Assembly: GCA_035297365.1 (NCBI GenBank) | Contig: DATGZA010000035.1 | Coordinates: 1-26,260 of the forward strand | DNA length: 26,260 bases | Reading direction: 5' to 3' | Source: Nitrososphaeraceae archaeon | GTDB taxonomy: Archaea > Thermoproteota > Nitrososphaeria > Nitrososphaerales > Nitrososphaeraceae | Shown: in pieces, positions 2-19,804 of the stretch | Layout of the letters: each line of letters begins with the position of its first letter | How positions within the stretch are numbered: the stretch's first letter is position 1 | Made by a program: the position numbers and the translations under genes | Notes under the pieces: model-generated | The model's database searches: none | Seen by the model: only the letters and a program-made list of their open reading frames with translations | Told to the model about the DNA's origin: nothing

Positions 2-166
2 AATAGTAATAATAAAAATAAGACTAATAATGACATAAAATCAAATAGTAATATTATCCTAAAGAAGGCAGGTTTGTCAAAAATTAGAATAACTTCTACT
101 GTACCTACTTTGCAGGGAGAATTAAGATGGTTACTTACACCGAGAGTATTAAAGAGTATCATCTAG
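2..166 (+). CDS. sixA: 3' end of a SixA-like phosphohistidine phosphatase (5'-truncated by the window edge)
   Basis: Frame 2 is open from base 2 to TAG at 164-166 and reads ...NIILKKAGLSKIRITSTVPTLQGELRWLLTPRVLKSII*, matching the SixA C-terminal pattern LKKAG...G.L.WLLTP. It lies directly upstream of ppx and is absent from the ORF track. Confidence 0.75.
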   Translation, partial: NSNNKNKTNNDIKSNSNIILKKAGLSKIRITSTVPTLQGELRWLLTPRVLKSII

Positions 167-183
167 ATAAGACCATAAACAAA

Positions 184-1761
184 ATGACTTATGGAAAACT
201 TTCATTCCGTAAAGTATCGGTAATAGATTTGGGATATAATTCTCTAAAATTAGTTCATTATATTATATCTCCTAATAAATGTTATAAAAAATACTATGAG
301 AAAACTATTAGGGTGAAACTTGGAGAAGGTCTAAACAAAACAGGATTCTTGCGAACAGAGGCTATCGATAGAACTATTCAATCTCTAAAATATTTTCGTG
401 ATATTATTAATTCTGAATCTATTGAATTTACAATACCATTTGCTACTAGCGCAGTACGTGAAGCGGAAAATAAGAAATTGTTTCTGAAAAAAGTGGAAGA
501 AGAAACAGGATTTAAATTCAAATTATTATCAGCTAATGAAGAAGCTGCATATTCATATCTTGGTGCATTGAACTCACTATGTTTTTCAAATTGCTTATTT
601 TTTGATCTGGGAGGAGGAACTATAGAACTAGTAAGTTCTAGAGATTACAGAATAAGGAGAGTAATGTCTCTTCCCTTAGGAGCATTGAAGCTAACCCAGA
701 AATTTTTTTCAAACAATGAAGATAACAAAACTTCTATTAGTAAAAAACCTAAAATTATTTACAATATTTTAGGAGAACATATTATGAATCAATTACCAGA
801 TTCAAAAGAATTAGAAATCAATAGCGAATCTACTGCACTAATAGGTGTTGGGGGGACTCTAAGAGCGATTGCAAGATATGATCAATTGATCAAAGAATAT
901 CCAATCACAAGGTTACATAACTACAAACTAGATTTCCGTTCCGTATCCACCATCAAAGATCATCTATCTAATATGAATAAAGAAGAGTTATCTAAGATAG
1001 ATGTAATAGGTGCAAATAGAGCAGAAATAATCAAGGCGGGATTATATGTAATCTACTTCCTTATGTCAAAATTGGGTTTTAAGAGTATTATTGTTAGTAC
1101 AAAAGGATTACGAGAAGGAGTGCTCTTAAATTTTCTTGAATCCTGTCATTTAGATAATAGAACTGATTTGGACAATTATCTACTAAATAACTGTTACAAA
1201 AAAGACAAATCCAATTCAAGTTTAGCAAAGAAATTCTTATCAAATGGAATTATAACAAAAAATGAATACACTATTATTAATCAATCAATATTATATATGT
1301 CCAAGATTCTGACTAATGATAATATTGGTCAATTTTATATTCTCCTCAATGAGGATATCGTGAATCTGGATCATCATCAACATGTTATATTAGCATTATC
1401 AGTTCTGGCAATAAATAAGCCAAAAATAGCTCTTGAACTATCTGAAAATTACAGAAAGCTATTATATTATTATTATGATAAAAAAAAGATCAAAAACATT
1501 ATCGAAAGAATATCAACTTTCTTACGATTTTTAAATTTTGTGAAAAATAACAAATTAATAATTCAAATCAAAGAATATACAAAAATAACAAACAAGCTTT
1601 TACTGGAAATCGTAGTACAAGGTGATAAAAATAAAGAAATCTTTTCCTTTCCAGAAATTTTATTTAAAGAGATAATATCAGATTTTAAGTCTTCATTTGA
1701 TCTTTCAATACAATATACAATATTCGTCCAAGACAACAAAAGGAGTACAGATAGTAAATGA
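184..1761 (+). CDS. ppx: Ppx/GppA family exopolyphosphatase
   Basis: ASKHA motifs VIDLGYNS, FATSAVREA, EEAAYSYLG, FDLGGGTIE, GVGGTLRA, GLREGV. Start moved from 127 to ATG at 184 because 127 lies inside the upstream sixA. The C-terminal region is divergent with no clear HD motif. Confidence 0.93.
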   Translation: MTYGKLSFRKVSVIDLGYNSLKLVHYIISPNKCYKKYYEKTIRVKLGEGLNKTGFLRTEAIDRTIQSLKYFRDIINSESIEFTIPFATSAVREAENKKLFLKKVEEETGFKFKLLSANEEAAYSYLGALNSLCFSNCLFFDLGGGTIELVSSRDYRIRRVMSLPLGALKLTQKFFSNNEDNKTSISKKPKIIYNILGEHIMNQLPDSKELEINSESTALIGVGGTLRAIARYDQLIKEYPITRLHNYKLDFRSVSTIKDHLSNMNKEELSKIDVIGANRAEIIKAGLYVIYFLMSKLGFKSIIVSTKGLREGVLLNFLESCHLDNRTDLDNYLLNNCYKKDKSNSSLAKKFLSNGIITKNEYTIINQSILYMSKILTNDNIGQFYILLNEDIVNLDHHQHVILALSVLAINKPKIALELSENYRKLLYYYYDKKKIKNIIERISTFLRFLNFVKNNKLIIQIKEYTKITNKLLLEIVVQGDKNKEIFSFPEILFKEIISDFKSSFDLSIQYTIFVQDNKRSTDSK

Positions 1762-2477
1762 CGCAGATAAAAATAAGAAAAACTAGTAATATTACAACTA
1801 GTAAGACAACTAAAAAAGATAAGTATAGTATAAAAGGTAAATTAATTATAGTTGAAGGAATTGATGGATCAGGAAAATCAACACAAATTCATCTTCTTGA
1901 TAAATGGCTTAAATTTAAGAATATACCGGCTTTTTTATCAGAGTGGAATTCATCTGAAATTGTAAAAAATGTAACCTCTAGAGGTAAGAAAAAAGAACAA
2001 CTTACACCTACAACATTTTCGTTACTCCACGCAACTGATTTTGCAGATCGGTACGAAAGGAATATTTTTCCATTATTAAGAGCTGGTTACATAGTATTGG
2101 CAGATAGATATATCTATACAGCATATGCACGAGATATAGTAAGAGGATGTGATCCCCTATGGATCAGAAAAGTATATGATTTTGCTTTAAAACCTGATAT
2201 CACATTTTATTTCAGAGTTCCGGTGGATGTAGCTGCAGGACGAATATTATCTGGAAGACCCAAGCTAAAATATTACGAGGCTGGAATGGATCTAAATTTA
2301 AGTAATGATATTTATGAAAGTTATCGTATTTTTCAAAGTAGAATAATAGAACAATATGAGAAAATGGTCATGACTGAAACTTTCGCTGTTATAGATGGGA
2401 CACTAAATATAGAACAACAACAAAAAATGGTTAGAGAAAAATTTAACAATATTTTTCCGAGAGATATGTTAAAATGA
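1758..2477 (+). CDS. Thymidylate-kinase-like protein A (probable subunit of a heteromeric polyphosphate kinase)
   Basis: P-loop EGIDGSGKST, ADRY motif and KPD.TFY. ATGA overlap with the ppx stop. Confidence 0.88.
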   Translation: MTQIKIRKTSNITTSKTTKKDKYSIKGKLIIVEGIDGSGKSTQIHLLDKWLKFKNIPAFLSEWNSSEIVKNVTSRGKKKEQLTPTTFSLLHATDFADRYERNIFPLLRAGYIVLADRYIYTAYARDIVRGCDPLWIRKVYDFALKPDITFYFRVPVDVAAGRILSGRPKLKYYEAGMDLNLSNDIYESYRIFQSRIIEQYEKMVMTETFAVIDGTLNIEQQQKMVREKFNNIFPRDMLK

Positions 2478-3253
2478 GTAATTCAAATAAGATGAAAAAA
2501 ATGGAAAAATCTAATATTATTAAATATTATGGACATGGAATTCCTTATTTGAAGAATATAGAATTAAAAGGTAAATTGATCATATTAGAAGGACCAGATT
2601 CATCCGGAAGAAGTACACAAATCTTATTATTAAATAATTATCTTGAAGCAAATGGTCACGCAGTTCTTAATACAGGCCTCAGAAGATCTGAGCTAATAAG
2701 TGAAGGAATACTGGAGGCAAAAGAAAGACATTTATTAAGAAAAAGGACCATGAGTTTATTTTATGCTGCAGATTTTGCAGACCAACTCGAGAACAAAATA
2801 ATCCCAGCTTTGAGAGCAGGGTATATAGTATTAGCAGATAGGTATATTTACACACTTATGGCTAGGGATACTGTAAGAAAAATTAATAGAATATGGTCAT
2901 ATAATTTATATGGTTTTGCAATTAAACCCGATCTTGTTTTTTATTTAGATGTAGATCCAAATGAACTTATACGAAGGGCTTTTCAAAAATCTACAGAGGA
3001 ACTCCTGAAAGGAATTTTTGATAAAGATAATTTTCTTGATTATTATGAATCTGGAGAAGATATGGGGTTTTCGGATGATCTTTTAGAATCTTTTATTCTT
3101 TATCAAAAGAAAATGAAGCAAGAATTTACTAGATTACAAAAAAAATATGGAATTATTAAAATTAACGGAAATAGAACAGTAGAAGAAGTGCATAACGAGT
3201 TAAAACAAAAAATAGATCAATTTTTAAAAGTTCCATTCAATAATTCAAAATAA
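2474..3253 (+). CDS. Thymidylate-kinase-like protein B with variant P-loop (probable partner subunit)
   Basis: P-loop EGPDSSGRST (Arg in place of Lys). Shares PALRAGYIVLADRYIYT and YYESG.D.G with paralog A. ATGA overlap with the paralog A stop. Confidence 0.86.
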   Translation: MSNSNKMKKMEKSNIIKYYGHGIPYLKNIELKGKLIILEGPDSSGRSTQILLLNNYLEANGHAVLNTGLRRSELISEGILEAKERHLLRKRTMSLFYAADFADQLENKIIPALRAGYIVLADRYIYTLMARDTVRKINRIWSYNLYGFAIKPDLVFYLDVDPNELIRRAFQKSTEELLKGIFDKDNFLDYYESGEDMGFSDDLLESFILYQKKMKQEFTRLQKKYGIIKINGNRTVEEVHNELKQKIDQFLKVPFNNSK

Positions 3254-3427
3254 TAAAATTAAATTTCTCCCGTTTTATATTAACCGACCTATTGTGTAGT
3301 ATTATAATCTTATAACAACATTATTCTCAGAATCTCAAAGAAACTGGTCTGCATATCGTGAATCCCTCATAGAATGTCGTAATATACTGATGGAAATTTA
3401 AATTATCAAGAATAATCTACCAAGGAC

Positions 3428-3449
3428 CTCATACCGATTTTCGTATGAG
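3428..3449. terminator. Small stem-loop between convergent genes
   Basis: CTCATAC-cgattttc-GTATGAG, a 7-bp perfect stem between the convergent 3' ends at 3253 and 3489. Terminator function is inferred only. Confidence 0.3.
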
Positions 3450-3488
3450 ATCCATGTCTTGCCAAATATAGTGTTATCAATAATAAGA

Positions 3489-3917
3489 TTATTTCTTCAT
3501 TTGTTTATTCTTCTGCTTCTCCTCTTTCTTCATTTGTTTATTCTTCTGCTTCTCCTCTTTCTTTTTATTATTATATTTTGATGTATTTATTGTATCTATA
3601 TCACCACCAATTTTTTTTACATATGATTGTAGTTGAGAGATTTGAGATTTGATCTGTCCCAGTGATTGTAATTCCCTTTTGTGATTAGGATTGCTAGTTG
3701 ATTTAACGGCATTTTTCACATCCAGCAAAATTTTTTCTAGTTTTGAATAATGATCATTTTCATCTTGTAATTTTTTTAGAATTGTTTTCTGCGTATTAGT
3801 ATTAATTTTTAGTTGATCGTGCATATTTTTCAAGTCAAGAATATGTTCAAAATCTAGTGGTTTTTCATTTGTACCAATTTCAACTTCGGGTATATTTAGA
3901 TTTTTTATATTTGACAA
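3489..3917 (-). CDS. Hypothetical Lys/Gln-rich coiled-coil protein
   Basis: 142-aa ORF with a TTG start, heptad-like helical middle and a basic repetitive tail. Confidence 0.6.
   Translation of the reverse strand: MSNIKNLNIPEVEIGTNEKPLDFEHILDLKNMHDQLKINTNTQKTILKKLQDENDHYSKLEKILLDVKNAVKSTSNPNHKRELQSLGQIKSQISQLQSYVKKIGGDIDTINTSKYNNKKKEEKQKNKQMKKEEKQKNKQMKK
3492..3563. repeat. Perfect 33-bp tandem duplication (2 copies plus 6 nt)
   Basis: tttcttcatttgtttattcttctgcttctcctc at 3492-3524 and 3525-3557, encoding the 11-aa repeat in KKEEKQKNKQM-KKEEKQKNKQM-KK on the minus strand. Confidence 0.95.
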
Positions 3918-4574
3918 TATATTTTATTTAAACTACTAGTATTTATTGTTTATATTACTATAGACAACATATAGATATCTTAATGACTCTATTGATCCGA
4001 TATATTATGCATAGTCAATATTTCAATAAGATTTTCAGTTGGATAGTAGTGAGCGAGGATTACTAAAATAAGTGACCTTAACGACGAATTCTAATATCAA
4101 CGATCAATATTCCAATAAATCCTATGTTTGTCATCTTTTTTCGAGTCTGGTAGCAGTATATTATTCTTTTTACAATAAAAAAATCGTTTCATAAAGATAC
4201 ACAAATAACTACAATGGTTTGACAATACTAGGAATATAATAACTCAAATGAAACATATAGATTGTTCAATAATTATTTTTGAATTAAGAACATACAATCA
4301 ATTCCTGACATGCTAATATGATTTTATGGATTCGAGCAGTCACATGCGATTAAAGGTTGAAATCGATATCGATATTCAAACAGATCTTGTAGAGAACAAT
4401 AATCGACTTATCATAATTTAAGATGGAATAATAAAGTGTATCTGGAAGGGACTGTATGAAGAGTATGTTTCATTTCAGATAAAGAAATTTCACTTCCATG
4501 TGATTGGACAATATGAATGATATGCAGATAATAAAAAAATAGTACCTGACTTTGGAGAGAATTGAGCAGTTTTA

Positions 4575-4850
4575 TGATTGCAATCACAAGACCAATTTAT
4601 AGAACGTTGTGAAAGAAATAGAACAAACATCTGCAGATTCTGCACATATTAGGGGGAGAGAAAGATTGTTGGGCTTACAGGCATAAGTGACATAACACTA
4701 GTGGGAGCCGAAAAATATTTAGAACATTAGAAGTGGAGTAAGATCGGATAAATACCGTTCAACTATCTATTTAGATGAATATACTCGAAAGTATTTCCTG
4801 TTATAAATAAAGATAAACTAGTTGAGCTAATTACAGTTACCATAGACTGA
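4575..4850 (+). pseudogene. Decayed CBS-domain protein remnant
   Basis: KIVGLTGISDI (from 4662) and FPVINKDKLVELITVTID* (4794-4850) are in the same frame, separated by three stop codons. Both resemble the CBS signature [LF]PV...GKLVGIIT..DI. The 5' boundary is approximate. Confidence 0.55.
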
Positions 4851-5595
4851 CAAATTGGCAGCTCCCTAACAACAAGTCGTTAATTTCCGGAAAGAAGAAA
4901 GTGACATTTTTTTCCCTCTTTCTACTCCGGAATTATTGAAAATTCTAATTTTATATTCTAAATATGGATAAAGGATCTAATAGATTAATTATTTAGCACA
5001 AAGAGAAATAAAGAAAACGTATAGGATTTCTTTCATAATCAAATTATCTACATCTTCGCTAGAAATGAACAAATCCATACCTCAAGAGATTTTAATGCAT
5101 GATTAGAGACAATTTTCTAAGGTATTTTCAAGGTAGAATTTGATGTATTCTGTACAAAAAATCCAATAAAACACATCATGGATAAAATTAAAAAACGTTA
5201 ATTTTCAAAATGACAGAATGAATCTGTCAGACTATAATACGGAAAGACTTCAATCTAAAAATATGGAAAGTTTATCAAGAGTATTTTTTGAATGTAATTG
5301 TACTTTTTTCATGAAACTACTTCTCAAAAATAGGTGTGTAGTAGGCGTAAGACTATAATGTCATAAAACATTTTTTTATTGTATCTCTCTTAGAAGCTTT
5401 AAAAAACTCGGATCAATTGCAAATTAAGAATGTCGATAAAATCCATCAGAACCAATTCTTGCATTTTTTGTATTATTATCCAAATCCTAAATTGGACAGT
5501 CAAATTTTATTAACATCAATTATTTGCTACTTACGTTTTTTTTACATAAGATAAAGGTTTAAGAATTATTATAAATTAAGATGATTTGTCTGCAA

Positions 5596-6096
5596 ATGAA
5601 AAAACTCTTACTTTTACGTCATGGCAAATCCGGCTGGGATAATCCTGATCTTGCAGATCATGAAAGACCGCTTACCAATCGAGGAAAAGAAAGTGCATCT
5701 ATTATAGGAAAATTTTTAAAAAAAGAAAATCTAATTCCTGATCTAATTATTACTTCCACTGCAAAAAGGGCAAATAAGACTGCTGATATAATTGCCAAAA
5801 AATCTGGCTATGATAAAAAGATTCTTAAATCAGAAGCATTGTACAATGGTTCTACAGAAGATTATACAAACATTATTCATGAAATTGCTGATAAAAATAA
5901 AACAATCCTCTTAGTTGGACATAATCCGGTGATAGAAGAAGTAATAGAAAGAATTACTGCCGAAAAAAGGATCATGAAAACATGTTCCTTAGCACATATT
6001 GATTTGTCCATCGAATCTTGGAAAAATTTTCATTATAGGAAAAAATATAAACTCGTTGATTTGATCAACGTAAGAGAATTAGATATAGATGGATAA
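5596..6096 (+). CDS. sixA: SixA-like histidine phosphatase
   Basis: LLLLRHGKS catalytic motif, RPLT.RG, ITSTAKRA..TA and LLVGHNP. Likely start is ATG 5596 (the track starts at 5581). Confidence 0.9.
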   Translation: MKKLLLLRHGKSGWDNPDLADHERPLTNRGKESASIIGKFLKKENLIPDLIITSTAKRANKTADIIAKKSGYDKKILKSEALYNGSTEDYTNIIHEIADKNKTILLVGHNPVIEEVIERITAEKRIMKTCSLAHIDLSIESWKNFHYRKKYKLVDLINVRELDIDG

Positions 6097-11303: not shown

Positions 11304-12596
11304 ATGCATAAAGAATCAAATTCATATCTATCCATTAGAACAGCATTTAACAAATTAAGAAAAAATATTGTTGTTCACCCGGTATCTGAAGAAGTAAATA
11401 CTAGAGATTCATTAGGTCGTGTTTTATATAATGACATTATTTCATCGATTGATATTCCAATACATGATTCTTCACACATGGATGGTTTTGCTGTTCTCTA
11501 TGACGATATAATTGGTGCTTCACGTTCGAGTCCAGTGACACTAAAAGTAATAAATGATATCAAACTCGGAAATACTAAAATTGAACCTTTACATTCACGA
11601 CAAGCTTCTAGAATTCCAACAGGCGGATATCTACCTAGAAATTCTGATACAGTTATTCCTATTGAATATGTAAAATATAACGAAAACGATAAATCAGTAA
11701 AGATCTTTTCTGAATTTACCAAAGGATCATTTGTATCTCCTGCAGGAAAGGATATTTCTAAAAATAAATTATTATTTAAAAAAGGACATTTAATTCGAAC
11801 TCAAGATATATCTTTGTTGAACTTAGTTGGGATTAAAAAAGTAAATATATTTAAAAAACCGAAAGTTGCAATAATTGCTACGGGAAATGAGCTGACCAAT
11901 AATATTGAAGAGGTCACTCAAGGAAAGGTTCTCAATACTAATGGTCCAATTATTTGCACCCTGGTGGAAGCATCTGGAGGAATATCTGTTGATCTAGGAA
12001 TAACAACTGATAATATCAAAGATATCCAGAACAAGATAAAACTTGCATTAACTGAAAATGATATCATTCTTACAATAGGAGGGTCTTCTGTTGGACATAA
12101 GGACCTCCTTGCAGAATCTATCAATTCTATGGGACATCCTGGAATTTTAGCTGAGGGAATTAAATTGGATAGAGGAAGAGTAACCAAAATTGCTGTGTTA
12201 AAGCATAAGCCAATTATTATATTACCTGGACCTATCCAAGGAGCTGTTAATGCCTTCATTGTATTGGCTATGCCACTAATTAGATCATTTCTTGGATTAT
12301 CTCAAATTAACGAAGCTAAAATAAATGCTCATATTACTGACAATTGGAATGCAAGAAAGCAATTTCAAAATTTTGTAAAAATCTTATATGTTCATCTATC
12401 TGCATCAAACACAAACAATCGTATAAGGGCCCAACCAATAACTGGAGAAACCTCAAATATGACAGTTATGACTAGAGCAAATGGTTATGTGATAGTACCT
12501 GAAAAAATAACAAATATTGAAAAGGAGAATGAGGTTCAAGTAAATTTGCTTTCTGGATTTTCTTTTCCATCCAGCAACCCCATCGATTTGGTGTGA
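11304..12596 (+). CDS. moeA: Molybdopterin molybdotransferase MoeA
   Basis: SLGRVL..DI, S.MDGFAV, IPTGG.LP..SD.VIP.E, IATGNEL, GGSSVG.KD and ILPG. Confidence 0.93.
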   Translation: MHKESNSYLSIRTAFNKLRKNIVVHPVSEEVNTRDSLGRVLYNDIISSIDIPIHDSSHMDGFAVLYDDIIGASRSSPVTLKVINDIKLGNTKIEPLHSRQASRIPTGGYLPRNSDTVIPIEYVKYNENDKSVKIFSEFTKGSFVSPAGKDISKNKLLFKKGHLIRTQDISLLNLVGIKKVNIFKKPKVAIIATGNELTNNIEEVTQGKVLNTNGPIICTLVEASGGISVDLGITTDNIKDIQNKIKLALTENDIILTIGGSSVGHKDLLAESINSMGHPGILAEGIKLDRGRVTKIAVLKHKPIIILPGPIQGAVNAFIVLAMPLIRSFLGLSQINEAKINAHITDNWNARKQFQNFVKILYVHLSASNTNNRIRAQPITGETSNMTVMTRANGYVIVPEKITNIEKENEVQVNLLSGFSFPSSNPIDLV

Positions 12597-12599
12597 CTA

Positions 12600-13406
12600 T
12601 TACTTGAATAAATTTCTAGCAAGATTAATTGCTGCTAATGCAACTAAAATTCCTATTATCATTATTATTTTGTTATGATCAAATTTAAATGCCCCAAGTC
12701 TAGACCCAAGTATACCCCCGAATAGAACAATTACAGACAAGGGCATTACCAAGTCAAAATCAATATGTTGGATGTTGTTTATATAATGAGCAATAAACCC
12801 ACTTATAGAATTTGTTAGTATAAATAAGCTTGCTGAAGCGGCTGCCTCTTTGGGGTTGGCTAACCCCGACATTATCAATATTGGTGAAAGCCATATTCCT
12901 CCTCCTATCCCAACAAGACCAGAGATACCACCAAGAAGTGCACCTAAAGGACACGTTATAAGCGCATTCTTGGTTAAATTCAAATTCAATTTTCTCATCT
13001 TCTCATATTGAAGCGTTAACTTTCTTCCGGACAATAGTAATGCGGCTGAAGCAGAAAAAAGGGATATGACAAAAATGAAGGTTAATATTTTTTCGGGCAA
13101 AACTATAGAACCTCCTAAAAATGCAAAAGGTACTGAAATTAAAAGAGGAATCGATAATCTTAAGGACAGATGTCCTGCTTTTAGATAATTAAAAAGAGCA
13201 GATGAAGACACAATAATATTTAGTGCTAGGGAGATTGGAGGCACTGCATACAAATTGACTCCAACAAGAACGAGGATAGCAATATAACTACTTCCCCCAG
13301 CAAATCCTACAGAAGAATAAAAAAAACTTATTATAAAGAAGATAGGGGCAAGTACTAATATTAGAACATCATTAATGACCCTTCCCTCCCAACATATTAA
13401 ATACAT
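12600..13406 (-). CDS. TauE/SafE (TSUP) family sulfite/sulfur-compound transporter
   Basis: Duplicated motif SSVGFAGGSSY / GLVGIGGGIWLSP, A...SA.FI..NS and about 8 TM helices. The exact start is uncertain because ATG 13406 overlaps the end of moaCB. Confidence 0.88.
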   Translation of the reverse strand: MYLICWEGRVINDVLILVLAPIFFIISFFYSSVGFAGGSSYIAILVLVGVNLYAVPPISLALNIIVSSSALFNYLKAGHLSLRLSIPLLISVPFAFLGGSIVLPEKILTFIFVISLFSASAALLLSGRKLTLQYEKMRKLNLNLTKNALITCPLGALLGGISGLVGIGGGIWLSPILIMSGLANPKEAAASASLFILTNSISGFIAHYINNIQHIDFDLVMPLSVIVLFGGILGSRLGAFKFDHNKIIMIIGILVALAAINLARNLFK

Positions 13407-14319
13407 GAAATATGCTAGGGAAAAGAAGATCTAACGATTCAGATACCCCTTTAGTACTTCCAGGTAGATTTACAATGAGAGTTTTATCTCTAATACCAGA
13501 TATTCCCCTTGAAAGCATTGATAGCGGTGTTCTCCTTTGACCATATGATCTGATAGCTTCGGAAATTCCTATTGCCTCTCTATCAACAACCATTTTAGTA
13601 GCATCTGGAGTTACATCTCTTTTACTAAAACCAGTACCTCCGGTGGTTATTATTAGATCTACTTTTTTATCATCAGAATATTTGATAAGAAGTGTCTTAA
13701 TTTTGTCCATATCGTCAGGTAATATTTCATAACCAACAATCTCAGTAGTAGTAGCATAAGTATTTTTTAGTATATCAGAGATCAATTTACCTGATTTGTC
13801 AACTCTCGTTCCATTAAAAGTAGAATCACTTATAACAAAAATAGCAATATTAATTTTTTTATCAAGAGTTTGAATAAAATCTCTTTTCCCTCCAGTTTTT
13901 TCTAACAGCTTTATTGACTCTATTGATAAATCTTCATCTATTGGCTTGAGCATATCGTATACAGCAAGAGCAGCGGTACTACAACCAGTCAATGCTTCCA
14001 TTTCTACTCCTGTTTTCCAGACACTTTTAATATTAACTTTAATTTCTATAGATGATTGGTGTAACAGCAGTTGTGTAGAAATATGATCTATTGGAATGGG
14101 ATGACAGTAAGGTATCAATTCCCATGTTTTTTTTGCTCCAAGTGTAGCTGAAATTTTTGCGGCCTCAATGATATCTCCCTTTGGTGTCCTCTCATTTTTT
14201 ATAAGATCAATACTTTCGGGATTTACTTTGATTATTGCTTGTGCAGTAGCAGACCTCAATGTATCTGCTTTTTTGGAAACATCAAACATTCCTCTATAAG
14301 AATTTCTTTCATTCACCAC
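13372..14319 (-). CDS. moaCB: Bifunctional MoaC-MoaB/MogA fusion
   Basis: MoaC part: MFDVSKK, KGD, AKKT.ELIP.CHP, TGVEMEALT, YDMLK, LLEKTGG. MoaB part: ISD...G.R.DKSG, ITTGGTG...RD.TP, LSRG..G, VNLPGS. Confidence 0.95.
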   Translation of the reverse strand: MVNERNSYRGMFDVSKKADTLRSATAQAIIKVNPESIDLIKNERTPKGDIIEAAKISATLGAKKTWELIPYCHPIPIDHISTQLLLHQSSIEIKVNIKSVWKTGVEMEALTGCSTAALAVYDMLKPIDEDLSIESIKLLEKTGGKRDFIQTLDKKINIAIFVISDSTFNGTRVDKSGKLISDILKNTYATTTEIVGYEILPDDMDKIKTLLIKYSDDKKVDLIITTGGTGFSKRDVTPDATKMVVDREAIGISEAIRSYGQRRTPLSMLSRGISGIRDKTLIVNLPGSTKGVSESLDLLFPSIFHVFNMLGGKGH

Positions 14320-14743
14320 TTATCATAACACCTTCTACCCATTCAGAATTGCCAGATTGCATTTTTTCCTTCTTCCAAATTGGACATCTTTTCTTAATAT
14401 TATCAATTCCATAGTTACAGGCTTCAAAAGCATCTTTTCTATGTTCTGATGAGACTCCAACTATGACACTGATTTCTCCAACTTTAAGGTATCCTGTTCT
14501 ATGTATGGCAATAAATTTTTTAACACTCCAATTCTCAAAGATTTCCTTTTCAATTTTTTTTAATATTTCTCCAACCATTTCTTCATAAGCTTCATAAAAA
14601 ATACCCTTCACTTTTCCCTTAGGGCTATTATTCCTAACGGAACCTGTAAACAAAACTAATGCACCAGATGAATCGTCTTTAATTTGATCTAAAATTTTTA
14701 GTTGATCGATCACATCTTTTGTTATAGAAATCATAAATATCAT
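14309..14743 (-). CDS. moaE: Molybdopterin synthase catalytic subunit
   Basis: GALVLFTGSVRN, YEAY..M, HRTG.L.VGE.SV, S.HR..AF.AC and PIWKKE. Confidence 0.95.
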   Translation of the reverse strand: MIFMISITKDVIDQLKILDQIKDDSSGALVLFTGSVRNNSPKGKVKGIFYEAYEEMVGEILKKIEKEIFENWSVKKFIAIHRTGYLKVGEISVIVGVSSEHRKDAFEACNYGIDNIKKRCPIWKKEKMQSGNSEWVEGVMISGE

Positions 14744-14756
14744 CTCCTAACTATCT

Positions 14757-15047
14757 TTATCCGCCACTTATAGGTGGTATTACGGCAATTTCATCATGTG
14801 GAGTTACCTCTACATTATCATTCCGTATCACTTTATTAACGGCAAAAACAAAGTTTATCCCATTCATAAAGAGAGAAGGATATGATTCTTCAAGATTTTT
14901 TCGGAGTTCTTTCAATGAAATTGAATTATCATTAATACGAATAATCAGATTATTACTTCTCAATTTTTCTCTAAAAATTCCAAATAATTTTATCCTTAAA
15001 ATTCTATCTTCTGTCAAGTTTTTCATGTTCACTCTCTGGTCAATCAC
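14757..15047 (-). CDS. moaD: MoaD/ThiS (SAMP-like) sulfur carrier
   Basis: Beta-grasp pattern IKLFG.FRE, FAVN and the C-terminal DEIAVIPPISGG diglycine. An alternative start is ATG at 15026. Confidence 0.92.
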   Translation of the reverse strand: MIDQRVNMKNLTEDRILRIKLFGIFREKLRSNNLIIRINDNSISLKELRKNLEESYPSLFMNGINFVFAVNKVIRNDNVEVTPHDEIAVIPPISGG

Positions 15048-15106
15048 CTCTTGTCTGAATAAGATTCGAGGTTCGTCTGGGTTCTAAATACATACATATA
15101 TTTTAT

Positions 15107-15751
15107 TTACTTTAATTTTGTTAGTTTTTCCATAAAATAGTTACGCCAGCCATCTGGAAGATCTTTAACCTTTATAGCGCGATTCATCATATCGGTATCT
15201 CTACCACCATTTGTTTGAAGGCGAACTATATCTCGTATTGTAACTTTATTTTCATCACTTTTTATTAATTCAATTTTATCTTCTACTCCTATTTCTCCTT
15301 CTTCTTCCACCTTGAAATATATTCCTGAACGTTCACTTGCCATGAATCTACGTATTATATCCATTCTGCCAAATCTTACAGCAAGTTTATAGCATGGCAT
15401 TCTAGGTTGTGTAGCTATTACCTTTGCAGATCCGATTTGAAATTGATCACCTATATTGACTAGATCCTCAAGTAAACCTTCTGTTGTAAGATTTTCTCCA
15501 AATGTTCCCCAAGAATATTCAAAATCTTTTATCTCCTTTTTCCAGAACCTGTAATGTTCTGATGGGTACGAATACACTGCTTTGTCTATGCCACCATGTA
15601 CCGTCAAATCTGCTTGCTTGTCTCCTTCCAAATTTAGCTTGTAGAGTTTGATTCTATGTTTGATTGGATTTTTAAAAATAGCCGTAGTAACAATTTCTTT
15701 GCCAAAATTTACTTTTACTGGAAGTCCGACATTTACAGATATAATCTTCAT
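15107..15751 (-). CDS. yiiM: MOSC domain protein with 3-alpha domain (YiiM-like molybdoenzyme)
   Basis: TAIFK.P, GD.QAD..VHGG.DKAVY.Y, FGENLTTEG, the QPRMPCYKL Mo-ligand Cys motif and RSG.YFKV.EEG. Confidence 0.9.
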   Translation of the reverse strand: MKIISVNVGLPVKVNFGKEIVTTAIFKNPIKHRIKLYKLNLEGDKQADLTVHGGIDKAVYSYPSEHYRFWKKEIKDFEYSWGTFGENLTTEGLLEDLVNIGDQFQIGSAKVIATQPRMPCYKLAVRFGRMDIIRRFMASERSGIYFKVEEEGEIGVEDKIELIKSDENKVTIRDIVRLQTNGGRDTDMMNRAIKVKDLPDGWRNYFMEKLTKLK

Positions 15752-17206: not shown

Positions 17207-19804
17207 CTAGACAAAAGTTCGATATACATCTTCAATAGCAATAACCTCTTCTGTTGTTTCGTCATTTTTCAGTCGACCTAATATCTCCAAAGCTGCTTTT
17301 TTATGTAAATATTCATTATTATTTCCGCATCTATACGAATAGGTACATCTTGGACAACCATCCTCATTCTCGCACGGACATTCATTTATGATGTTATGTG
17401 CACGTATTACTGCCTGTTCAAATCTATCATACAGACTTTTACTTGCACCATTTCCACCTATGCTTCCATCATGTACAACAATAATTCCTGAATCACCTAG
17501 TGAAATTCCTCCTAAATCTTGTGACGCGCCACCAGTTATCATCGAACTTCCTTCTATAATTACATGTTCTGTAGCATGATAACCGCTTGTTTCTACCAAT
17601 TCCTTGTCCCTTATTTGTTCCAAGATTGTTAAAGGTCTAGGAGCTTTAAATATAAAACCTTTAGTAACATATTCAAAAATTTCTGGATTTTCAAATAATA
17701 CTTTTTTACCTTGATTTATTTCTTTTCCAATTTCTATATTGGAGTATCCAGTTACTCTTTTTAAGATTTTTAGTAAACAATACTTTAATTGTATTCCATA
17801 TACGTTCTTTTGTTCAATAATTTCAAGAATTTCTGGGATCTCTTCTAGCATTGCTTTAGTGTAATATGGGTAATTCGAAGGAATCATTTCAACTTCAGCA
17901 AAACTTCTTTCTGATCTATTGTCTAAAACGAATCTATCTACCTTGTATCTTTTTCCAGCTATAAAATATATTGCATCCTTGTGTAATTCTTCTAGCGCAT
18001 ACGGTAAATTCCTATTCCCAACTACTTTACCATCAAAAATGATATCAATTTCTTTTCCTGTACCTCTTATACTGTAGTTTTTTAATTTTAAAAACGATTT
18101 GCTGTTTGTGATATATCTGTCATCTTTTAGATCTATCAATCCTTCTTTCACTAACCGTTTTATTGCTTCTGACATTTTTTTTGATTCTGATAAAGAGATT
18201 GGTCGATCAGAACACATTGCTAAAATCTGATTTTCCTCAATTATAGGGTTGTGTGGATCAATATAAGGATATTCGTAGTCACAAAAATAATCCTCAGGGT
18301 GATTCTTATAATACTGACTTATTGGATCATTTCCCAGTGTAAGAAAAGCAAATCCCTCTTGTCCACTTCTAGCAGCTCTTCCTAATCTCTGTAATAATCT
18401 GTTAATGGGAACAAGATTAGATATTACTGAATCTACATCCCCTATGTCTATTCCTAATTCTAATGTTGGTGTGGAAGATAAGACATCCAATTTGCCGGAT
18501 CTGAAAGAATTCTCCATGATTTTCCTAACCTTTGGTAAAAGACCAGCTCTATGTACTCCTATTTTTATCCCTAATCTTGAGGAATTGAATGCCAAAAGTT
18601 CAGCGGAAATATGAGAATTACTAAAGACTAAGGTTTTATGTTTTTTTGATATTTTTCTTATAAGGTCCAATCTCAAAGACCTATTTGACCGTAAAGATGG
18701 ATAAATAATTGAAAAATTTATTATCCCTTTTCTTCCAGTTCCTTTGATAATTTCCATTCTTTTGTCAAATAACTGGTTACAAAATTCATTAGCGTTAGGC
18801 AACGTTGCTGAACAAGCTATTATCTGCAATTTTCCTTTACTTGATAATATTCTTTCAAGTCTCTTTATTATAAAGTAGATATTTGACCCAAAAACACCAT
18901 TATATGTATGGACTTCGTCCACAACCAGGAATTTTATTGTTTTAAATAGATTCACAAATCTAGTTTTATTTAAGAGATGGTAATGTATCATATCAAAATT
19001 AGTTATTAAGATCTCCGGAGGTTGATCATAAATTGTCTGTTTTTCGGATTCATCAAGGTCTCCATCAAATATTTTTGCTTCGATATCCAGTTCATTTGCA
19101 TAGTAGTTTATTTTCTGAAACTGGTCTCTTCCCAAAGCTTTTGTAGGATAAACAAATATCGCTGAAACTCTATTGGTAGGCAGATTGGTATCTTGTTTTA
19201 TTTTTTTTAAAAAAATTTTCTCATTATTACCTTTCAAGAGATTATCATCATAAATTTTTTGAATAACAGGAAGACAGAAAGATTCAGTTTTCCCGGAGGC
19301 AGTTGGCGCAATTATAACAATATCTTTTCCCCGGAGAATTTTCAAGATAGCATCCTCCTGAAATTTAAATAGTTTATTTATGTCTTTTTTACGAAGTTGT
19401 TCTAATAAAATGTCACATAACGGTAATTCTTCTAATTCTTTTCCATCTTGAATGTCCGAATCTATAAGTTTTCGTAGGTCTACAATGTAGTCAGTTTCAG
19501 AATACAAGATGTTGTTTATCAATTCATTATCAAAATTATTTTTTTCAATCATTTCTTTGATCTCATTTTTTGATCTAACCAGTTTTTCCTGTTCAAGAAT
19601 TGCTTTAAAATCTTTCATTAAAGTAACTGAGCCAGTATCAAACCGTTCCAAGAAATCTAGGTATGTCTCGTCTAAATCTACATTAAATGGGATAACGCAA
19701 CAAATATCACATTTTTCACAGACAAACAATATTCTTCCGTCAAAAATCTTATCTGTTTTGATTGAATTAATTGTGGAACAATTGGGGCATCGATATTTAT
19801 TCAC
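17207..19804 (-). CDS. SF2 DEAD/DEAH helicase with C-terminal DUF1998 Zn domain (Hrq1/MrfA/SftH-like) and N-terminal Zn ribbon
   Basis: Motifs APTASGKT, YPTKALGRDQ, DEVH, SAT, TLELGIDIG and QRLGRAAR. C-terminal CPC....GCPRC.....C and N-terminal CPNC...CEKC. Confidence 0.93.
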   Translation of the reverse strand: MNKYRCPNCSTINSIKTDKIFDGRILFVCEKCDICCVIPFNVDLDETYLDFLERFDTGSVTLMKDFKAILEQEKLVRSKNEIKEMIEKNNFDNELINNILYSETDYIVDLRKLIDSDIQDGKELEELPLCDILLEQLRKKDINKLFKFQEDAILKILRGKDIVIIAPTASGKTESFCLPVIQKIYDDNLLKGNNEKIFLKKIKQDTNLPTNRVSAIFVYPTKALGRDQFQKINYYANELDIEAKIFDGDLDESEKQTIYDQPPEILITNFDMIHYHLLNKTRFVNLFKTIKFLVVDEVHTYNGVFGSNIYFIIKRLERILSSKGKLQIIACSATLPNANEFCNQLFDKRMEIIKGTGRKGIINFSIIYPSLRSNRSLRLDLIRKISKKHKTLVFSNSHISAELLAFNSSRLGIKIGVHRAGLLPKVRKIMENSFRSGKLDVLSSTPTLELGIDIGDVDSVISNLVPINRLLQRLGRAARSGQEGFAFLTLGNDPISQYYKNHPEDYFCDYEYPYIDPHNPIIEENQILAMCSDRPISLSESKKMSEAIKRLVKEGLIDLKDDRYITNSKSFLKLKNYSIRGTGKEIDIIFDGKVVGNRNLPYALEELHKDAIYFIAGKRYKVDRFVLDNRSERSFAEVEMIPSNYPYYTKAMLEEIPEILEIIEQKNVYGIQLKYCLLKILKRVTGYSNIEIGKEINQGKKVLFENPEIFEYVTKGFIFKAPRPLTILEQIRDKELVETSGYHATEHVIIEGSSMITGGASQDLGGISLGDSGIIVVHDGSIGGNGASKSLYDRFEQAVIRAHNIINECPCENEDGCPRCTYSYRCGNNNEYLHKKAALEILGRLKNDETTEEVIAIEDVYRTFV

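Follow-up and report, generated by a model that had tools for sequence, protein, structure and literature searches.

A probable PPK3 polyphosphate kinase operon with sixA and ppx in a Nitrososphaeraceae archaeon

The heteromeric polyphosphate kinase PPK3 was described from Sulfolobus acidocaldarius by Hofmann et al. (J Biol Chem 2026; PMC12995831); its subunits are Saci_2019 (catalytic, cPPK3) and Saci_2020 (regulatory, rPPK3), both formerly annotated as thymidylate kinases and encoded in the operon sixA-ppx-saci_2019-saci_2020-CHAD. The complex behaves as an alpha2-beta2 tetramer and ATP formation from ADP and polyphosphate is strongly favoured; Saci_2020 is inactive alone and raises the activity about tenfold, cPPK3 alone having about a tenth of the activity of the holoenzyme (PMC12995831). 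Neither Saci_2019 nor Saci_2020 has dTMP kinase activity, the real dTMP kinase being a third paralog, Saci_0893 (PMC12995831). As far as the text at hand of that paper goes, the EP motif and other dTMP-binding residues of Tmk are not conserved in PPK3, rPPK3s lack the DRX arginine or have it replaced, which the paper and its preprint give as the reason for the inactivity of Saci_2020, and ST1543/STK_15430 of S. tokodaii is named as a cPPK3 homolog (PMC12995831). Here, a stretch of 26,260 nucleotides from a Nitrososphaeraceae archaeon (assembly GCA_035297365.1, contig DATGZA010000035.1, positions 1 to 26,260), referred to as the window, was analysed; its first 3.3 kb carries the end of a sixA-like gene, ppx and two thymidylate kinase-like paralogs, A and B, which very probably constitute, by analogy with the Sulfolobus enzyme, a polyphosphate operon with the two subunits of PPK3.

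The family Nitrososphaeraceae is listed as a main carrier of PPK3, and Data S1 gives for PPK1/PPK2/PPK3 the values 0/0/1 in Nitrosocosmicus franklandus and 0/1/1 in N. hydrocola, N. oleophilus and Nitrososphaera evergladensis (PMC12995831). The PPK3 reading is thus already in print, for Nitrososphaeraceae included, and it is not new in this respect. The four reading frames are as follows:

2..163, + strand: 3' end of a gene for a SixA-like histidine phosphatase, 54 codons, cut by the window edge, stop at 161-163; first gene of the operon.
127..1761, + strand: ppx, exopolyphosphatase of the Ppx/GppA family, 544 amino acids (PF02541, E 2.1e-48).
1758..2477, + strand: paralog A, cPPK3-like catalytic subunit, 239 amino acids; P-loop GIDGSGKST at nucleotides 1857-1883, DRY at nucleotides 2103-2111, lid residues R167/K171.
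2474..3253, + strand: paralog B, rPPK3-like partner, 259 amino acids; P-loop GPDSSGRST at nucleotides 2591-2617 with Arg for Lys, DRY at nucleotides 2837-2845, basic residues of the lid lost.

At the ppx/A junction (...gtaaATGAcgc..., 1758-1761) the start ATG of A overlaps the TGA stop of ppx, and at the A/B junction (...aaaATGAgta..., 2474-2477) the start ATG of B overlaps the TGA stop of A in the same way. All four frames and both junctions were found as given in a preliminary description of this DNA, and the two P-loop motifs that it had reported were located at residues 34-42 of A and 40-48 of B. That description had also put sixA ahead of ppx, in agreement with the alignment of the 3' fragment to SixA-like open reading frames (ORFs) of related loci, and had pointed to a tandem 'dTMP kinase' pair beside ppx in Sulfolobus acidocaldarius, which is indeed PPK3 (PMC12995831).

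Paralog A matched the Pfam family Thymidylate_kin (E 1.1e-21). Its closest solved relative was ST1543 of S. tokodaii (PDB 2plr/4nzy/4rzx/5h70; E 1.7e-63, residues 26-228, about 60% identity), the best match to a canonical Tmk being far weaker (E 1.2e-13), and its nearest relative with a named source was P0137, 'dTMP kinase [Nitrososphaeraceae archaeon]', at 92% identity. Every catalytic element is kept, K40, R98, R167 and K171 being invariant in the 28 aligned A rows. Judged from its residues, A seems to be a complete phosphotransferase whose second substrate is different.

Paralog B also matched Thymidylate_kin (E 5.9e-23) and was likewise closer to ST1543 (PDB 2plr; E 1.2e-34) than to canonical Tmks (2.9e-16 or weaker); its nearest relatives with a named source, again titled 'dTMP kinase [Nitrososphaeraceae archaeon]', were 72-76% identical. 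The structure model of B, built on an alignment of 28 sequences, had a mean pLDDT value of 86.3 and a predicted template modelling score of 0.84, and its best fold matches were the chains of ST1543 (5h70_A: E 2.6e-17, template modelling score 0.92 on the target, root-mean-square deviation 1.9), ahead of canonical Tmks. B has 28 invariant columns of its own. The ratio of nonsynonymous to synonymous substitution rates (dN/dS) was 0.026-0.123 for B in the 6 of 7 close pairs with an estimable dS and 0.017-0.107 for A in 4 of 7, with dS mostly above 1 and the pair L065/L071 alone unsaturated (0.064 and 0.073). B is under purifying selection, similar to A, and looks, from its sequence, like a folded, conserved and catalytically impaired paralog. 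No match of A or B to PPK2 (PF03976) was obtained at E <= 0.01 in Pfam or NCBIfam. A strict N-terminal motif of B, [FYW][YFH]GxGxP, was held by 7 of 28 rows only and no claim is made from it.

The two paralogs were compared residue by residue in one alignment that combined 28 rows of each with the Tmk of Escherichia coli (b1098, L081), with the following differences:

P-loop: K40 in A (28/28 rows), R46 in B (28/28).
EWNSS block: E62-S66 in A, G68...R71-S72 in B.
H91: His in A (28/28), Y97 in B (28/28).
R98: Arg in A (28/28), Q104 in B (64% of rows).
Lid R167, aligned with E. coli R153: Arg in A (28/28), D185 in B, not conserved.
Lid K171: Lys in A (28/28), D189 in B (86% Asp).

Common to both subunits are DRY and three arginines (R125/R131, R129/R135 and R162/R168 in A/B numbering), of which R131, R135 and R168 are as invariant in B as their counterparts in A. 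E40-P41 of E. coli Tmk corresponds in the alignment to E62-W63 (A) and G68-L69 (B), F74 to H91 (A) and Y97 (B), and R78 to F95 (A) and F101 (B). These E. coli positions, which we take to be dTMP-binding residues, are changed in A and B. This agrees with the statement of Hofmann et al. that the dTMP-binding residues are not kept (PMC12995831). From the full Tmk set of catalytic and dTMP-site residues, A retains the catalytic ones only, and B is in addition without the P-loop Lys and the lid Arg. The substitution in the P-loop is general: in 76 of 76 B-type ORFs (75 from related loci and that of the window) Arg replaces the P-loop Lys and the D-R of the DRX motif is kept, as D122-R123-Y124 in window B. 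The 83 ORFs sorted as A-type comprised 79 with G-K, three mis-sorted B ORFs with G-R and one truncated ORF.

Related loci were taken from one scan of species-representative genomes, and all locus counts refer to the best 80 loci; the 549 relatives returned by the scan are not a count of PPK3, one of the search patterns fitting canonical Tmk too. By phylum label, 15 of the 80 loci belonged to Nitrososphaerota, including metagenome-assembled genomes (MAGs) named Nitrosocosmicus, Nitrosotalea, Nitrosotenuis and Nitrosopumilus, one to Thermoproteota and 61 to bacteria, three having no domain label. The 61 loci labelled bacterial were from Acidobacteriota (26), Verrucomicrobiota (18), Nitrospirota (6), eight phyla with one or two each, and one source without a phylum; counting three that were judged by record titles, 64 of 80 loci are bacterial, in 11 named phyla. 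No Sulfolobaceae locus was present among the 80.

A was directly followed by B in 79 of the 80 loci, as determined by phmmer of the window proteins against all locus ORFs together with tblastn. Seventy-five of these were obtained by ORF calls, three (L063, L067 and L073) have B within over-long ORFs with a G-R P-loop, and in L002 B was recovered by tblastn in a masked stretch. The sole exception was L003 (3500-5172): its 5.9-kb contig has no B, and what comes after sixA, ppx and A is CHAD, encoded on the opposite strand; a single exception is also mentioned among the published operons (PMC12995831). Where both ORFs were 190-300 amino acids long (56 loci and the window), A was directly upstream of B on the same strand in 57 of 57 cases, with a 4-base overlap in 22. 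This arrangement is far beyond chance. The pairwise distances of A and B co-vary (28 paired rows; Mantel r 0.84, a value reached in none of 2000 permutations), which shows co-inheritance and not binding or contact.

Within the limits set by contig ends, ppx was found in 56 of the 80 loci, a SixA-like gene in 38 and CHAD in 31, the last count being further limited by a profile made from six archaeal sequences. CHAD was directly 3' of B in the archaeal loci L006, L009, L011 and L038, and genes for a phosphate transporter or PhoU were near the A-B pair in L004, L005, L006 and L009. Pairs were also present in MAGs named Nitrosotalea, Nitrosotenuis, Nitrosopumilaceae and Nitrosopumilus (L004, L009, L011, L012 and L013; one of them a 1.89-Mb chromosome), the Data S1 entries at hand for cultured Nitrosopumilus species being 0/0/0 for PPK1/PPK2/PPK3 (PMC12995831). 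The bacterial spread is broader than the 'a few bacteria' in the text at hand of the paper (PMC12995831), probably because the collection used here is rich in MAGs.

Phylogenetic relationships were examined with two trees, one made quickly from 90 rows and one made carefully from 78, the latter rooted on E. coli Tmk as a single outgroup on a very long branch and leaving out 12 long-branch representatives (P0385, P0307, P0305, P0275, P0339, P0283, P0257, P0295, P0268, P0269, P0270 and P0277). In both trees, A and B of the window each lay within a clade of Nitrososphaerota. In the tree of 78 rows, a branch with 99/97 support, recovered in 100% of 200 bootstrap trees, split the A-type from the B-type ORFs. 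Nitrososphaerota, the window included, were monophyletic in both halves (A 99/88, B 100/100). P0274 fell on the A side, next to the archaeal A clade (90/74), and is judged to be Sulfolobales-like because it resembles the ST1543 alignment in print. Together with P0274, the A-type rows made up one side of this tree, separate from E. coli Tmk.

The preliminary description had proposed a catalytic and a partner subunit instead of dTMP kinases, which is supported by the ST1543 match, the B clade, the pairing in 79 of 80 loci and the operon order; a phylogeny, which it had called for, gave A and B in separate, supported clades distant from E. coli Tmk, with P0274 as the Sulfolobales-like member. Its assignment to a likely ammonia-oxidising archaeon holds at family level, from the Nitrososphaeraceae relatives and the Nitrososphaerota clades. 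The shared fold with PPK2 that it had pointed out stands at the level of generic P-loop kinases and goes no further than that (PMC12995831).

Subunits of both kinds also occur in one polypeptide. In P0241, a protein of 460 amino acids from Alicyclobacillaceae, the c-type domain comes first and is succeeded by an r-type domain whose P-loop is degenerate, and P0251, P0258 and P0266 (650-696 amino acids) carry a c domain, a degenerate r domain and a C-terminal region that appears HD-domain-like by eye. A further fusion listed is P0290, and proteins of 1000-2575 amino acids with one PPK3-like domain exist. A second degenerate type was recognized among the 150 best cluster representatives, where P0327, P0366 and P0351 have NKY or EQY for DRY with the G-K P-loop intact, and are placed next to the B clade, modestly supported (96/84 and 83/0). 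With a profile of these three proteins as query, 120 aligned rows were retrieved, of which 48 were without the DRX Arg, all 48 keeping the Lys; the remaining rows were 15 with G-R and DRY and 57 with G-K and DRY. Nitrospirota (Leptospirillum ferriphilum included), Margulisbacteria and Obscuribacterales were the sources named at the upper end of the hit list, the part in which the three DRX-less queries have their closest relatives; the names apply to that part of the list and not to single rows of a motif class. This search found bacteria and no Sulfolobales.

On the model of the Sulfolobus enzyme, A would move phosphate reversibly between ATP/ADP and polyphosphate, mainly making ATP from ADP and polyphosphate at low energy charge and building polyphosphate only at a high ATP/ADP ratio. 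B, catalytically impaired, would assemble with A and raise its activity, the complex being alpha2-beta2 as in Sulfolobus, PPX would hydrolyse polyphosphate, and a regulatory role is probable for the SixA-like phosphatases. The c-r fusions and the co-inheritance of A and B bear on such an assembly indirectly. What the sequences themselves establish is the genes with their motifs, the placement in families and the conservation of the pair; from the published Sulfolobus enzyme we infer the activity, the direction in which it runs and the oligomer, and the inactivity of B from the change of the P-loop Lys to Arg and the lost Arg/Lys of the lid.

Several points weigh against a PPK3 operon at this locus. 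Both proteins are above the cut-off (83.25 bits) of the NCBIfam model TIGR00041 'dTMP kinase', A with 85.9 and B with 92.4 bits, and the PDB entries of ST1543 are titled dTMP kinase, although the protein has been reinterpreted as a cPPK3 homolog (PMC12995831). Since both pass this model, their relatives are labelled 'dTMP kinase' by annotation pipelines; that routine annotation misses the function, as anticipated in the preliminary description, is borne out by the names of the closest database relatives. The function is transferred wholly from Sulfolobus proteins, with which A shares about 60% identity and B less. Going by the wording of the text at hand, rPPK3s are without the DRX Arg; in window B, by contrast, DRY is intact and it is the P-loop Lys that is replaced, by Arg; the published reason for rPPK3 inactivity is therefore inapplicable here, and that put forward for B is our own. 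Finally, no Pfam match to CHAD, which belongs to the Sulfolobus operon, was obtained in any window ORF of at least 80 amino acids.

It is conceivable, though we hold it to be rather unlikely, that B is not a mere scaffold and binds nucleotide or polymer as a sensor or second site, the regulation in this clade differing from that of the Sulfolobus enzyme. This is a refinement of the PPK3 explanation and not a competitor. Changes of the Walker A Lys to Arg often keep nucleotide binding while abolishing transfer, and the consistency of G-R-[ST] and D-R in 76 of 76 B-type ORFs, together with R131, R135 and R168, invariant as in A, would suit such a role, as would the existence of the separate partner type that keeps the Lys and is without the DRX Arg (48 of 120 rows). 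On the other hand, the conserved Arg may be purely structural, and the contrast with Sulfolobus is drawn from the wording of the paper's text alone. If Saci_2020 is of the DRX-less type, as worded there, the partners in Nitrososphaerota and in most of the bacterial loci are a different variant. In its fullest form the proposal, which we offer tentatively and with the balance tilted against it, would be that the B class differs from Sulfolobus rPPK3, binds adenine nucleotide without transfer, senses energy charge and switches between the making and consuming of polyphosphate, and that it is the common form of the partner, as suggested by 75 partner ORFs of the best 80 loci, from Nitrososphaerota and 11 named bacterial phyla.

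That A alone is the polyphosphate kinase, B being a decaying or functionally unrelated duplicate, is very improbable. The loss of the P-loop Lys and of the lid basic residues in B, the locus L003 with A then CHAD and no B, and the activity of cPPK3 alone at about a tenth of that of the holoenzyme (PMC12995831) would fit such a duplicate, but B stands beside A in 79 of the best 80 loci, has dN/dS values of 0.026-0.123 and 28 invariant columns of its own, gives a confident Tmk-fold model (pLDDT 86.3) and has B-type domains fused to c domains in nature. It is scarcely credible that both genes are ordinary, redundant dTMP kinases lying beside ppx by chance, as their TIGR00041 scores and the dTMP kinase titles of their relatives and of the ST1543 entries would have it, considering that Saci_2019 and Saci_2020 are without dTMP kinase activity and Saci_0893 has it (PMC12995831), that the positions of E40-P41, F74 and R78 are changed in both paralogs and B is without the P-loop Lys, and that the A-B pairing and its context of ppx, SixA and CHAD recur across two domains of life.

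The sixA fragment (2-163) had no Pfam or NCBIfam match by itself. Against SixA-like ORFs beside ppx in related loci it scored 19-44 bits (phmmer), and its C-terminal 40 residues or so were 33-48% identical to the C-termini of six full-length SixA-like ORFs of Nitrososphaerota loci, located directly upstream of ppx in four and adjoining ppx on the other strand in two. The sixA identity is considered right on the basis of this C-terminal alignment to ppx-adjoining ORFs. The ppx product scored 241.6 bits (1.1e-71) against TIGR03706, under the 307-bit cut-off of that model, and aligned over its full length with the ppx products of seven Nitrososphaerota loci, with a conserved core from about residue 29. 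Counted from the listed start (ATG 127), ppx shares 37 bases with sixA up to its stop. The homologs start just 1-10 residues ahead of the conserved KxSVIDLG block; these short N-termini and the position of the core favour the ATG at 184, which may be the real start of ppx instead of 127, the overlap with sixA then being gone.

A second SixA-like gene is located 2.3 kb 3' of B:

5581..6096, + strand: second SixA-like histidine phosphatase, intact (PF00300, E 4e-12), with RHG and GHNP motifs.

This protein scored 60.4 bits (1.7e-16) against TIGR00249 sixA, under the cut-off of 74.5 bits. Close relatives (94-139 bits) were near A-B pairs in two Nitrososphaeraceae loci (L008 and L015) and five Acidobacteriota loci (L051, L055, L068, L074 and L077), and the gene possibly is in the same polyphosphate neighbourhood.

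Between B and this gene, a Lys/Glu-rich ORF of 142 amino acids (3489-3917, - strand) belongs to no family and had no convincing relative in the loci; at its 3' end lies a perfect 33-bp tandem repeat of 2.2 copies (3492-3563), encoding repeated KKEEKQKNKQMKK. The following 1.66 kb (3918-5580) are without any ORF of at least 60 amino acids on either strand, in a window otherwise dense with genes, and gave no Rfam family, tRNA, CHAD remnant, or blastn or tblastx similarity to any of 81 loci. A CHAD remnant was searched for in the ORF-poor stretch 3254-5580 by tblastn with eight archaeal CHAD proteins and was rejected, the best E being 0.045 and located elsewhere in the window; blastn and tblastx of this stretch against all loci gave nothing.

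The G+C content was about 24-36% per kilobase across the window. The other genes include an ArsR-type regulator, a thioredoxin/DsbD pair, a DUF7482 protein, an SDR, a TPR protein, a radical-SAM protein and a PNPOx-like protein. A molybdenum-cofactor cluster (11304-15751) comprises MoeA on the + strand and, on the minus strand, a TauE-like exporter, a MoaC-MoCF_biosynth fusion, MoaE, a ThiS/MoaD-like protein and a MOSC-domain protein, and an MrfA-like helicase of 865 amino acids (17207-19804, - strand) has DEAD/Helicase_C and a C-terminal MrfA zinc-binding (MZB) domain. No canonical tmk, ppk1 or ppk2 was found among the ORFs of at least 80 amino acids of the 26-kb window, which is one window of the genome only, and no amo gene within it. 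Rfam and tRNA scans of the window gave no matches, and scans for bacterial-type promoters and terminators were uninformative, the DNA being AT-rich and archaeal.

Soil ammonia-oxidising archaea drive nitrification, and their phosphate storage and energy buffering are poorly known. Nitrososphaeraceae can be without PPK1 and PPK2, and PPK3 gives them a route to make or use polyphosphate, as is already in print (PMC12995831). Relabelling such 'dTMP kinase' pairs as polyphosphate kinases would mend a systematic annotation error, both proteins passing the NCBIfam model. To this the present analysis adds, modestly, that A-B pairs are very common among bacterial MAGs (64 of the best 80 loci, 11 named phyla) and are also found in MAGs of Nitrosopumilaceae, Nitrosotalea and Nitrosotenuis, and that the partner subunit of all these loci is marked by Arg for the P-loop Lys and not by the loss of the DRX Arg to which the text at hand of the paper refers.

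Compared with known systems, A and B share with canonical Tmk (E. coli b1098) the fold with P-loop, DRX motif and lid, and differ from it in their matches to solved Tmks (E 1e-13 or weaker), in the very long branch of the tree and in the changed positions of E40-P41, F74 and R78. The two-domain class II PPK2 (P. aeruginosa PA3455) is similar in that an inactive P-loop kinase module pairs with an active one for oligomerisation and in that the equilibrium lies toward polyphosphate-driven nucleotide phosphorylation; it belongs to another family, its modules are fused and not encoded by separate genes, and the acceptor is AMP rather than ADP (PMC12995831). ST1543 is the best solved relative of both A and B, and differs in having been crystallised without a partner subunit. 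The S. acidocaldarius PPK3 differs in the CHAD gene, which does not follow window B, and in the organism, here a mesophilic, AT-rich Nitrososphaeraceae archaeon. In both systems sixA and ppx precede two adjacent Tmk-fold paralogs, the catalytic one first and the partner second; the P-loop Lys, DRY and the basic residues of the lid are retained in the catalytic subunit, the partner is without the conserved basic residues, and, as far as the published operon is described in the text at hand, the gene order matches up to rPPK3.

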